Positions 16,615-19,544 of a stretch of DNA of 32,000 bases are shown here, piece by piece. The notes below the pieces were generated by a model. It did no database searches. It worked only from the letters and a program-made list of their open reading frames with translations, and was not told where the DNA came from. The position numbers and the translations under genes were made by a program. Source of the stretch: an uncultured archaeon (GTDB lineage: Archaea; Asgardarchaeota; Thorarchaeia; Thorarchaeales; Thorarchaeaceae); NCBI GenBank assembly GCA_964648855.1, contig CAZYLT010000010.1, positions 30,001 through 62,000 on the forward strand. The letters run 5' to 3'. Numbering within the stretch: position 1 is the first letter of the stretch; every line of letters begins with the position of its first letter.

Positions 16615-17142
16615 GTGCCATTGTCGAAGGAAGCCAGGAACGAAATAGTAAGTGTTAGAGTCCGAATTCCACGCGATGTGTTAGAGAGGATTGACCTCGC
16701 TGCTGGACCGAATGGGCGTCAACGATTCATCTTGGAGTCTCTTCTCTGGCGACTTGACAAAGAGATTCCTCCGGTTGTTCTTGACCTGCTTGATGATGTT
16801 GATGAACTCAAATTGCGCGTGAAACACTTGGAAGAGGCACGTGGAACAAGTATCTACAGACAAGACCTCACTGAAGAAGTCCGAAAAGAGGTCTGCAGAG
16901 ATGACTTAGACCGCCAGATTCTCGCCTACTTTCTCCAACATAAGGGTGCAACAACCCCTGAGTTGGCGGAAGAGCTCTTGGATGATGAGAGTAAGAGACG
17001 TACTATTCATGACAGGATATCCAAGCTAAATGAAAATGCAGAAGAGATTCTCGGGACTGAAATCCTAGAATTCGAGCGGGGAGAAAGAGCAGGTAAACGT
17101 GGTGCTTGGTGGATCAGCAACATCAGCGCCTTGGTGGACTAA
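16615..17142 (+). CDS. putative DNA-binding protein: RHH + coiled coil + winged helix
   Basis: VSVRVRIPRDVLERID (RHH), LLDDVDELKLRVKHLE (coil), DDLDRQILAYFLQHKGATTPELAEEL..RRTIHDRISKL..GAWWI (wHTH). Confidence 0.8.
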   Translation: MPLSKEARNEIVSVRVRIPRDVLERIDLAAGPNGRQRFILESLLWRLDKEIPPVVLDLLDDVDELKLRVKHLEEARGTSIYRQDLTEEVRKEVCRDDLDRQILAYFLQHKGATTPELAEELLDDESKRRTIHDRISKLNENAEEILGTEILEFERGERAGKRGAWWISNISALVD

Positions 17143-17178: not shown

Positions 17179-17286
17179 GGGGTCGTAGTCTAGCCTGGAT
17201 AACTCGAGAAGGCTTCCTTCTCCAGTTCGTTAGGCACAAGCCTCCGGAGCTTGGCATCCCCGGTTCAAATCCGGGCGATCCCGCCA
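17179..17286 (+). tRNA. tRNA-Arg(CCG) with 30-nt BHB intron in the D-loop (17202-17231, position 21/22); encoded CCA
   Basis: Acceptor GGGGTCG/CGATCCC+G+CCA; D-stem GTCT/AGGC; anticodon arm CAAGC-CTCCGGA-GCTTG; T arm CCCGG-TTCAAAT-CCGGG; TTTAAA at 17151-17156. Confidence 0.95.
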
Positions 17287-17353
17287 CTTTCCAATTTTCT
17301 GTGCCATTTATAAGATGCCGTACGACATAGAAATTCGATTGAGACTGCCTATT

Positions 17354-17566
17354 ATGAGGACAAGCAAACCAAGATCGGCTCGATTGGAAGGGGTTTTGAT
17401 CCGCTTCACCAAGTATCTTAATGGTCCCTTGGGTGGGATTGTGATGGATAACTTGGAAGAGGGGGAAAGCTTCGTCTTGCAGACCGTTGATCATCTATTG
17501 AGGATAAGCAAGAGGAACTGCAAAGCCGTTGTTGAGCCAATTGAAAGTCCCTTGGTTCCACAATAG
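17354..17566 (+). CDS. small hypothetical protein (70 aa) between the two tRNA-Arg genes
   Basis: TATA-like TTTATAAG at 17306-17313, ATG 17354, protein-like composition, T-rich tract after the stop. Confidence 0.55.
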   Translation: MRTSKPRSARLEGVLIRFTKYLNGPLGGIVMDNLEEGESFVLQTVDHLLRISKRNCKAVVEPIESPLVPQ

Positions 17567-17650
17567 ACTGCCATCAATGTGCCGGGTTTTTCACTGTTTT
17601 TCTAGGACCGAAGCGAAGAGTCTATAAGTTTCTTCAAATCTGCTTCTTTG

Positions 17651-17760
17651 GGGCGCGTAGTCTAGTATGGACTCCTCGTAGTTTCTACTGCGGGAGGTGC
17701 GTATAAGGCACTGGCTTGCGGAGCCAGGTATCCCAGGTTCAAATCCTGGCGCGCCCGCCA
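17651..17760 (+). tRNA. tRNA-Arg(GCG) with 32-nt BHB intron in the D-loop (17671-17702, position 19/20); encoded CCA
   Basis: Acceptor GGGCGCG/CGCGCCC+G+CCA; D-stem GTCT/AGGC; anticodon arm CTGGC-TTGCGGA-GCCAG; T arm CCAGG-TTCAAAT-CCTGG; TATAAG at 17623-17628. Confidence 0.95.
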
Positions 17761-17858
17761 TTAGTCATTCCAGTGTTTTTTCAAATTCCTTCCCTCGGCG
17801 AGAAGCTTAAATGTGTGAAAATATCGGCCCCTGTTGAGTTAGCAACTTCTTTGATTCA

Positions 17859-19019
17859 ATGCCGAGAAAAGCAACTCAAGAGATATCAATAATGCAATTC
17901 ACGCCTCAACGCCTCGAGAAATTAAACCGCTTCATGAAGCACGAAGAAGTAGATGCAATCATAGTCACTCGAAGCCAAGATGTACAATATCTCACAGGCT
18001 TTCAAAGCCCACGGCATGATGTTCCCGTTGGCTGCCTGATTCCTGTAGATGAATCGCCAAGGCTTTTGGTGTCCGAGTCACAACAGGAATTAGTTGCACA
18101 AGAGAACCTCTTATCGAGACTGGTCAGCTATGAGGATAGTAGCGAGAAGACGTGGCATCCCCTTTATAATCAATCCTTCTGGAAAAATGTGATTGACTTG
18201 ATTGCTGAGCATTCATTATCCGACGCCATGATTGGTCTTCAGCATGAATGGATCACAGTCAAGGAATTCGATTTGCTGAAATATATGCTCCCGAAGGCGG
18301 GATTCAAGGATTTCTCCAATGTACTATGGAGAATGCGTGAAGTGAAGGATTCCATCGAGATTGATGCAATCATTCAAGCCGTTAGAATTGCGGAGATTGG
18401 TCTGAGAACAGCACTCGAAGTGGTGGCGGCTGGGAAGACGGAGTCTGACACATCTGTTGAAATTGAAGCGGCTATGCGTAGTGCAGGAGGCCAATTGAGG
18501 GGAATTAGAGCAGCTGTTCTGTCTGGTCTGAGAGCTCCTTATAGATTTGCACAGCCCACTTCTGCTCGAATTGACAAAGATTCGCCAGTAATCGTTGATA
18601 TAACTGTGAGTCATGCGGGATATTTCGCTGAAGTTGCAAGGACCTTGCATACCTCACGCCCAACAAACGAACAGAAAGACATGATAAAGAAGAATCATGC
18701 AATCTGTAACTTGCTTGAGGAAAAAATGCAGCCTAATGTCAAGATTTCCGATTTGATGGAGAAGGTTAGCGACAAAATCAGTCTTGAGAGAATAGACTAC
18801 CGGCTGGTTGGATTTGTTGGTAACTCCATTGGGCTAGATTTACGTGAGCCCCCACTATTGGACTCATCAAATCCATCTTCACTTCGGGAGGGTATGATCT
18901 TTTCTGTCCATCCCACATTCTATGATGAAAAATCAGGAAGTGTCAAAACTGCAGACGTATTCCGCATCACTGAGGATGGCTGCGAAAATCTCTCAAGCCT
19001 GTCTCGTGAAACCATGTGA
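17859..19019 (+). CDS. M24 (aminopeptidase P / creatinase fold) protein lacking the dinuclear metal ligands
   Basis: Creatinase_N-like DVQYLTGF; R.VKD..EI; GKTE; VDITVSHAGYFAEVART; GNSIGLDLREPP; LREGMIFSVHPTFY; KTADVFRITEDG. Confidence 0.9.
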   Translation: MPRKATQEISIMQFTPQRLEKLNRFMKHEEVDAIIVTRSQDVQYLTGFQSPRHDVPVGCLIPVDESPRLLVSESQQELVAQENLLSRLVSYEDSSEKTWHPLYNQSFWKNVIDLIAEHSLSDAMIGLQHEWITVKEFDLLKYMLPKAGFKDFSNVLWRMREVKDSIEIDAIIQAVRIAEIGLRTALEVVAAGKTESDTSVEIEAAMRSAGGQLRGIRAAVLSGLRAPYRFAQPTSARIDKDSPVIVDITVSHAGYFAEVARTLHTSRPTNEQKDMIKKNHAICNLLEEKMQPNVKISDLMEKVSDKISLERIDYRLVGFVGNSIGLDLREPPLLDSSNPSSLREGMIFSVHPTFYDEKSGSVKTADVFRITEDGCENLSSLSRETM

Positions 19020-19544
19020 CTATATCGCGTTTCTCCACCGACGCAGTTTTTGAAAGACCTCGGTCATCACTTCTGCGCGAAGCGCCTGCTTTTCAACTTC
19101 ATCTCTTGAGAGTTCCCTCACTTGTGCTGCTGGTGCTCCCGAATTAAGAGACCGAGGTGGAATGACTACATTTGAAGGGATTATACTGCCACTAGTTATC
19201 ATTACTCCCTCGCCAAGAGTTGCTCCATCAAAAATCACACAACCTTCGCCAATCTTGACAGTATCTCCTACATATACACCATGGAGAACAGATGCGGTGC
19301 CGATTACTGTTTTGCTACCAATAATAGCTGGATTCTCTTCATGATGGGCGTGGATTACAACGCTGTCCTGAATACAAGTTGATTGTCCGATTCTGACGGA
19401 TGCTTGGTCCCCTCTGATGACTGCACCGGGCCAAACACAGGATTTTGCTTCAATCTCGACATTTCCAACAATTGTTGCCTGCGGGCTAATGAAGGCCTCC
19501 GGGTCAATAGTCGGATTATGATCACCAAATGGAAGAATAGGCAT
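19020..19544 (-). CDS. gamma-carbonic anhydrase-like hexapeptide-repeat protein
   Basis: P.IDPEAFISPQATIVGNV, WPGAVIRGD, IQDSVVIH, VLHG, SGAPA. Confidence 0.9.
   Translation of the reverse strand: MPILPFGDHNPTIDPEAFISPQATIVGNVEIEAKSCVWPGAVIRGDQASVRIGQSTCIQDSVVIHAHHEENPAIIGSKTVIGTASVLHGVYVGDTVKIGEGCVIFDGATLGEGVMITSGSIIPSNVVIPPRSLNSGAPAAQVRELSRDEVEKQALRAEVMTEVFQKLRRWRNAI

Follow-up and report, generated by a model that had tools for sequence, protein, structure and literature searches.

Introduction

Bulge-helix-bulge (BHB) introns in the D-loop are known from Crenarchaeota, as in tRNA-Thr(UGU) of A. pernix (PMC3241643, PMC4307357), and, at position 20b/21, from tRNA-Glu of M. kandleri (PMC5829648), with positions 20/21 and 22/23 described elsewhere (PMC4090602). 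The EndA endonuclease of A. pernix needs no further factor to cut out a BHB intron of the D-loop, and in vitro such introns are cut more slowly than those at 37/38 (PMC3241643). Transposition of introns among tRNA genes has been described for the Thermoproteales (Fujishima 2010, as cited in PMC4090602 and PMC4033280). In Asgard archaea, whose EndA is an (alpha-beta)2 enzyme with an L1 loop (PMC5829648), D-arm introns are reported to be frequent, often missed by annotators, and gained repeatedly at the same positions (10.64898/2026.10.13.758758; PMC11291895). Both of the latter accounts, Valentin-Alvarado 2024 (PMC11291895) and the preprint of Goswami et al. (10.64898/2026.10.13.758758), focus on Atabeyarchaeia and Jordi/Freyarchaeia, whereas our study concerns the Thorarchaeia, of which the main text of the preprint makes no mention. 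Copying of tRNA introns between genes is reported by Goswami et al. to be rare in their focal families (1.5% at 80% identity), and the route by which introns arrive was left open there.

Here, we describe a tRNA-Arg(GCG) gene from the genome of an uncultured member of the Thorarchaeaceae (G000), located in a window of 32,000 nt, by which we mean the whole stretch of DNA analysed. Its intron resembles those of A. pernix and M. kandleri in being a short hairpin with a 3-4-3 BHB, in a host with an (alpha-beta)2 EndA carrying a specificity loop, but differs from both in lying exactly at 19/20, a position that we did not find named in the literature outside Marck and Grosjean 2003, the Sugahara catalogues, SPLITSdb and the preprint supplements. 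We consider it likely that this is a functional tRNA-Arg(GCG) whose BHB intron occupies a recurrent site, was copied from an Arg(UCG) gene and is near-neutral cargo. More tentatively, and with slightly less than even confidence, we propose that 19/20 is an uncatalogued, lineage-wide hotspot in Thorarchaeia, with introns spreading by gene conversion between isoacceptors that can overwrite nearly the whole gene while the anticodon is kept. If true, the hotspot and conversion reading would provide a concrete route of intron arrival of the kind left open by the 2026 Asgard-wide study.

A 32-nt intron at position 19/20 of tRNA-Arg(GCG)

Read directly from the sequence, the tRNA-Arg(GCG) gene occupies positions 17651-17760 (+) of the window and encodes its own CCA. 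The 5' exon (17651..17670, +) runs from nucleotide 1 to G19, including 17a, and has the same sequence as the 5' exons of Arg(UCG) genes; the intron (17671..17702, +) comprises a hairpin at 17672-17696 followed by the 3' strand of the BHB central helix at 17697-17700; and the 3' exon (17703..17760, +) begins with A20 and carries the anticodon GCG (17718-17720), the T-arm, discriminator G73 and the CCA. Excision of 17671-17702 yields a canonical tRNA of 78 nt with G18-G19, A20, G73 and CCA, in agreement with intron-free homologues. A TATA-like box about 25 nt upstream (17623..17628, +) is a candidate promoter, and a run of six T residues downstream (17776..17781, +) a possible archaeal terminator.

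An initial sequence-only reading of this locus had placed a 32-nt D-loop intron at 19/20, immediately before A20, and comparison with two relatives bears this out. In an intron-free Arg(UCG) gene of a related genome (G015), the alignment gap coincides exactly with the 32-nt insert, which fixes the intron boundary independently of the BHB motif. Within Arg(GCG) itself the junction is ambiguous by one base, as cuts at 19/20 and 20/20a give an identical mature tRNA, but the intron of the orthologue in a genome of the same genus (G001) begins with U, so the junction must be 19/20. The two orthologous introns are 91% identical, and the exons are conserved in G001 as well.

Standard annotation does not recover the gene intact. 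ARAGORN missed it when run without the intron option and misplaced it with that option, and at the gathering threshold Rfam matched only the 3' part of the tRNA (RF00005), with no match to any other RNA family in the window. Since ARAGORN misreads such genes, tRNA sets of Thorarchaeia are probably under-annotated. A pattern scan of metagenomes gave no match. The intron, at 32 nt, does not have the length for a C/D guide RNA. From sequence comparison, the insert is a real but ordinary splice-out intron of Thorarchaeota; a single such intron is routine, and serves mainly as one case bearing on annotation gaps and on the arrival of tRNA introns in archaea.

A covarying BHB and a competing fold

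The BHB was found as that reading had described it, and its helix covaries. The central helix joins GUAU on the exon strand (G15-U17a, 17665..17668, +) to GUGC in the intron (17697-700), with four of four pairs formed, two of them G-U. It is flanked by 3-nt bulges, GGA and GUA, by a long intron stem (h', 10 listed pairs) and by an exon-side helix (h) of two contiguous pairs, A14-U20a and U13-A21, and in either bulge the predicted cut follows the second base. For comparison, we gathered 79 Arg introns at 19/20 from 60 genome labels, with junctions set by exon sequence and not by the motif, and drew from them a set of 33 introns less than 70% identical to each other. Among these 33, the intron strand covaries with the exon strand, with a mean of 3.58 of four central pairs formed, compared with 2.98 +/- 0.09 when introns were reassigned among hosts (0 of 10,000 reassignments reached the observed value). 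Perfect central helices occurred in 22 of the 33, but in only 0-1 when the register was slid by one to three bases. Covariation confined to the BHB register indicates more than chance pairing at 19/20.

The BHB is nevertheless not the minimum-energy structure predicted for the Arg(GCG) precursor. ViennaRNA placed a shifted register 8.3 kcal/mol below the BHB-constrained fold, gave the central-helix pairs a probability of approximately zero, and predicted a minimum-energy fold in which both cut sites are hidden inside the shifted helix. In a local construct, the penalty for forming the BHB had a median of 2.6 kcal/mol over the 79 introns and was 7.9 in Arg(GCG); the Arg(UCG) precursor of G001 (1.7 kcal/mol) lacks the competing register. 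Burial of both cut sites is what would be expected if the insert were retained, making the locus a pseudogene or a tRNA with an extended D-arm. We judge this to be highly improbable, and reject the pseudogene reading in particular, because the gene is the sole GCG/ACG anticodon arm found in G000 (94.6% complete), because exons and intron alike are conserved in G001, and because the covariation is tied to the BHB register; the Arg(UCG) paralogue of the same genome, moreover, shares the competing fold (6.9 kcal/mol). CGU and CGC together make up 22% of Arg codons in long open reading frames (ORFs) of G000 and, with no other GCG/ACG decoder found, this suggests that the intron is spliced, perhaps slowly.

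The host genome encodes the machinery for such a reaction, a broad-specificity EndA and a ligase. Of its two EndA-family genes, the one on contig C6 matches the alpha subunit of A. pernix best (E 3e-49), in an alignment spanning the specificity loop and the catalytic Tyr/His/Lys motifs, and is by this measure a crenarchaeal-type enzyme with specificity loop. The genome further encodes RtcB and an ArgRS in which the N-terminal domain is present. We propose that the precursor D-arm folds into the BHB, that an (alpha-beta)2 endonuclease would then cleave each bulge after its second base, and that RtcB would ligate the exons to give the 78-nt tRNA with A20.

A recurrent insertion site, whatever the base at position 20

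Three expectations about position 19/20 had been voiced in the sequence-only reading: that it might be rare, that the D-loop might be an insertion hotspot, and that selection might act to mask the region around A20. The first does not hold. When this genome and its relatives were surveyed for D-loop BHBs, as that reading had suggested, 19/20 introns proved common in the lineage: Arg(NCG) genes carry an insert directly after G19 in 19 of 86 family genomes and 11 of 16 genera, pattern-search counts that are lower bounds and come from related genomes that are not independent. With Arg(CCU/UCU) included, all five Arg isoacceptors are represented, and we reject rarity on these grounds. The site is also used in a second Asgard family and in metagenome-assembled genomes (MAGs) labelled Woesearchaeota, Nanoarchaeota, Helarchaeota and Methanosarcinales. 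In the MAG labelled Methanosarcinales, a BHB intron of 38 nt lies at 19/20 of an Arg(UCU) gene (L127, 1050, -); this is unexpected for the group, and the MAG may be misbinned. Two further Arg genes with a 19/20 intron (L040 and L042) have 3' ends without a normal T-arm and are possibly truncated copies from integration.

The hotspot, by contrast, is supported by sequence comparison. An isotype-blind search of the family, counted by eye, found 41 Arg D-arm introns at 19/20 against one at 21/22, and none 5' of G18. Other isotypes had sites of their own in that search (Pro at 21/22, Phe at 20/21, Val at 21/22 or 23/24). In the Atabeya/Freya table, which gives offsets only, Arg D-loop introns follow 22 exon bases, like that of the CCG neighbour of our gene, and the entries examined include no Arg intron after 20 exon bases. 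Beyond Arg, introns at 19/20 occur in tRNA-Ile(GAU) of 16 genomes and in CAU tRNAs of three (L210, L235, L236, L266, L270 and L348-L361), all with U20 and 16 of the 19 with a perfect central helix. What Arg, Ile and CAU hosts have in common is U13-A14 opposite U20a-A21, which gives the outer helix, and we propose that 19/20 is a recurrent Thorarchaeia site wherever these bases can pair, whatever the base at position 20. Val genes, with a similar outer helix of 2 bp, had no 19/20 intron beside 128 intron-free D-loops, so the structure is permissive and not sufficient, and does not by itself explain where introns are placed.

The same survey bears on the idea that selection keeps the intron to mask A20 or the D-loop region, for example by blocking the charging of precursors or by regulating arginine decoding. 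In bacteria, plants and mammals the chief Arg determinant is A20 (PMC9976931). No tRNA of the family hosts 19/20 introns more often than Arg, and four of the five Arg genes of G000 have D-loop introns, three of them at 19/20; a strong competing fold predicted for the Arg(GCG) precursor and the slower cutting of D-loop introns in vitro (PMC3241643) also count in favour of the idea. Masking of A20 would, however, predict restriction to A20 tRNAs, and the 19 U20 hosts share the site. Furthermore, 73 of the 86 family genomes contain intron-free Arg(NCG) D-loops, 178 in all, the intron of the neighbouring CCG gene differs between two genomes of the same genus, and the review that names A20 includes no archaeal Arg determinant tested by experiment (PMC9976931). 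Any D-loop intron would presumably disturb the tRNA core, so A20 would not be needed for a block. On account of the U20 hosts, the many intron-free Arg D-loops and the variable neighbour, we reject masking of A20 and consider selection of this kind very unlikely.

Probable copying from an unlinked Arg(UCG) gene

The Arg(GCG) gene sits in a conserved locus of the order CCG-ORF-GCG-peptidase. Its upstream neighbour, tRNA-Arg(CCG) (17179..17286, +), carries a 30-nt BHB intron at 21/22 (17202-17231) that is absent in G001. Between the two tRNA genes lies an ORF of 83 aa (17315..17566, +) that is found family-wide, with 37-63% identity in other genera, and marks the locus as ancestral; a family-conserved ORF of 175 aa (16615-17142, +) flanks Arg(CCG) on its other side, and an M24 peptidase/creatinase-fold protein (17859-19019, +) lies downstream of Arg(GCG). 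Neither the 83-aa nor the 175-aa ORF had a Pfam match. That two nearby Arg isoacceptors had gained different introns, as noted in the sequence-only reading, stands in so far as the introns are at different sites and unrelated: at 62%, their identity falls within the range of shuffled sequences (mean 52%, maximum 75%). That reading overlooked, however, the closest relative of the insert, which lies elsewhere in the genome.

This relative is the homologous 32-nt 19/20 intron of tRNA-Arg(UCG) (contig C4 of G000, 18987-19096, -; L045), a gene unlinked to Arg(GCG) and the probable donor. The two introns of G000 are 84% identical, compared with a shuffle maximum of 75%. Outside the anticodon arm, Arg(GCG) differs from the closest UCG genes by one base and from every GCG gene of other genera by at least nine, and in the tree it falls inside a set of 26 UCG, three GCG and two CCG genes (SH-aLRT 99). 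The flanks of Arg(GCG) are unlike those of the UCG gene. From these comparisons, the intron most likely arrived by copying from Arg(UCG). We propose that UCG-type sequence, with its intron, overwrote the GCG gene by gene conversion or remolding before G000 and G001 split, that the genus ancestor's unlinked Arg(UCG) gene was the source, and that the intron was probably near-neutral cargo, retained only because it could be spliced. The anticodon stem of Arg(GCG) differs by 2 bp from that of the UCG gene, so a single clean copy is insufficient, and either a mosaic event or changes at two more pairs would be needed. A search by blastn-short for a donor elsewhere in G000 found none, though this search is weak and missed the 84% identical UCG copy too.

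Alternatively, intron and tRNA body could be shared by GCG and UCG through old common descent, with the GCG genes of other genera later homogenized by the adjacent CCG gene and no recent copying involved. The CCG and GCG genes of most relatives are indeed near-identical and interleaved in the tree, the anticodon arm of Arg(GCG) agrees with GCG genes of Promethearchaeota MAGs, and an AU test over 67 columns did not reject its grouping with the remaining GCG and CCG genes (p 0.19). Set against this, GCG and UCG of G000 have introns as similar to each other as the UCG introns are between the G000 and G001 orthologues (78%), and introns this short would not be expected to stay so similar over family-level distances, given that 19/20 introns compared between genomes have a median identity of ~53-55%, which is the chance level. 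We therefore regard common descent as improbable and favour copying from Arg(UCG).

Sharing of this kind is not confined to G000. Pairs of Arg isoacceptors with shared 19/20 introns were found within single genomes at 100% identity in L048 (G012), 97% in L051 (G014), 84% in L046 and L057 (G095) and 74% in L037 (G051). Overall, eight of 69 Thorarchaeia Arg introns at 19/20 have a same-genome partner of another anticodon with at least 80% identity, compared with the 1.5% at 80% of Goswami et al., although the two measures are not identical. As described for the Thermoproteales (Fujishima 2010), related introns are thus present in more than one tRNA gene of a genome, but here the introns shared by isoacceptors occupy one and the same position, their flanks are nearly identical and the tRNA body comes along with them, a combination that fits gene conversion and not transposition to new sites. 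The GCG/UCG pair and the similar pairs of three other genomes (G012, G014 and G095) may serve as testable cases of spread from isoacceptor to isoacceptor.

Other tRNA genes of the genome

Among the remaining Arg genes of G000, which has 19/20 introns in GCG, UCG and CCU and a 21/22 intron in CCG, Arg(UCU) has an anticodon-loop intron. The 30-nt 19/20 intron of Arg(CCU) (contig C4, 32799-32906, +; L209) is unrelated to that of Arg(GCG) and conserved in G001; a GGG run would permit 20/20a there, whereas the family alignment points to 19/20. The second of the EndA-family genes lies ~1.3 kb away from Arg(CCU). By our reading of gene listings, roughly two thirds of the ~44 tRNA genes of G000 contain introns, and several on contigs C2, C4, C11 and C19 have at least two, among them tRNA-Trp with a precursor of 228 nt (C4, 138847-139074). 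In tRNA-Glu(CUC) (C4, 65885-65994, -), an apparent intron of ~32 nt interrupts the D-stem near 10/11, which is an unusual site.
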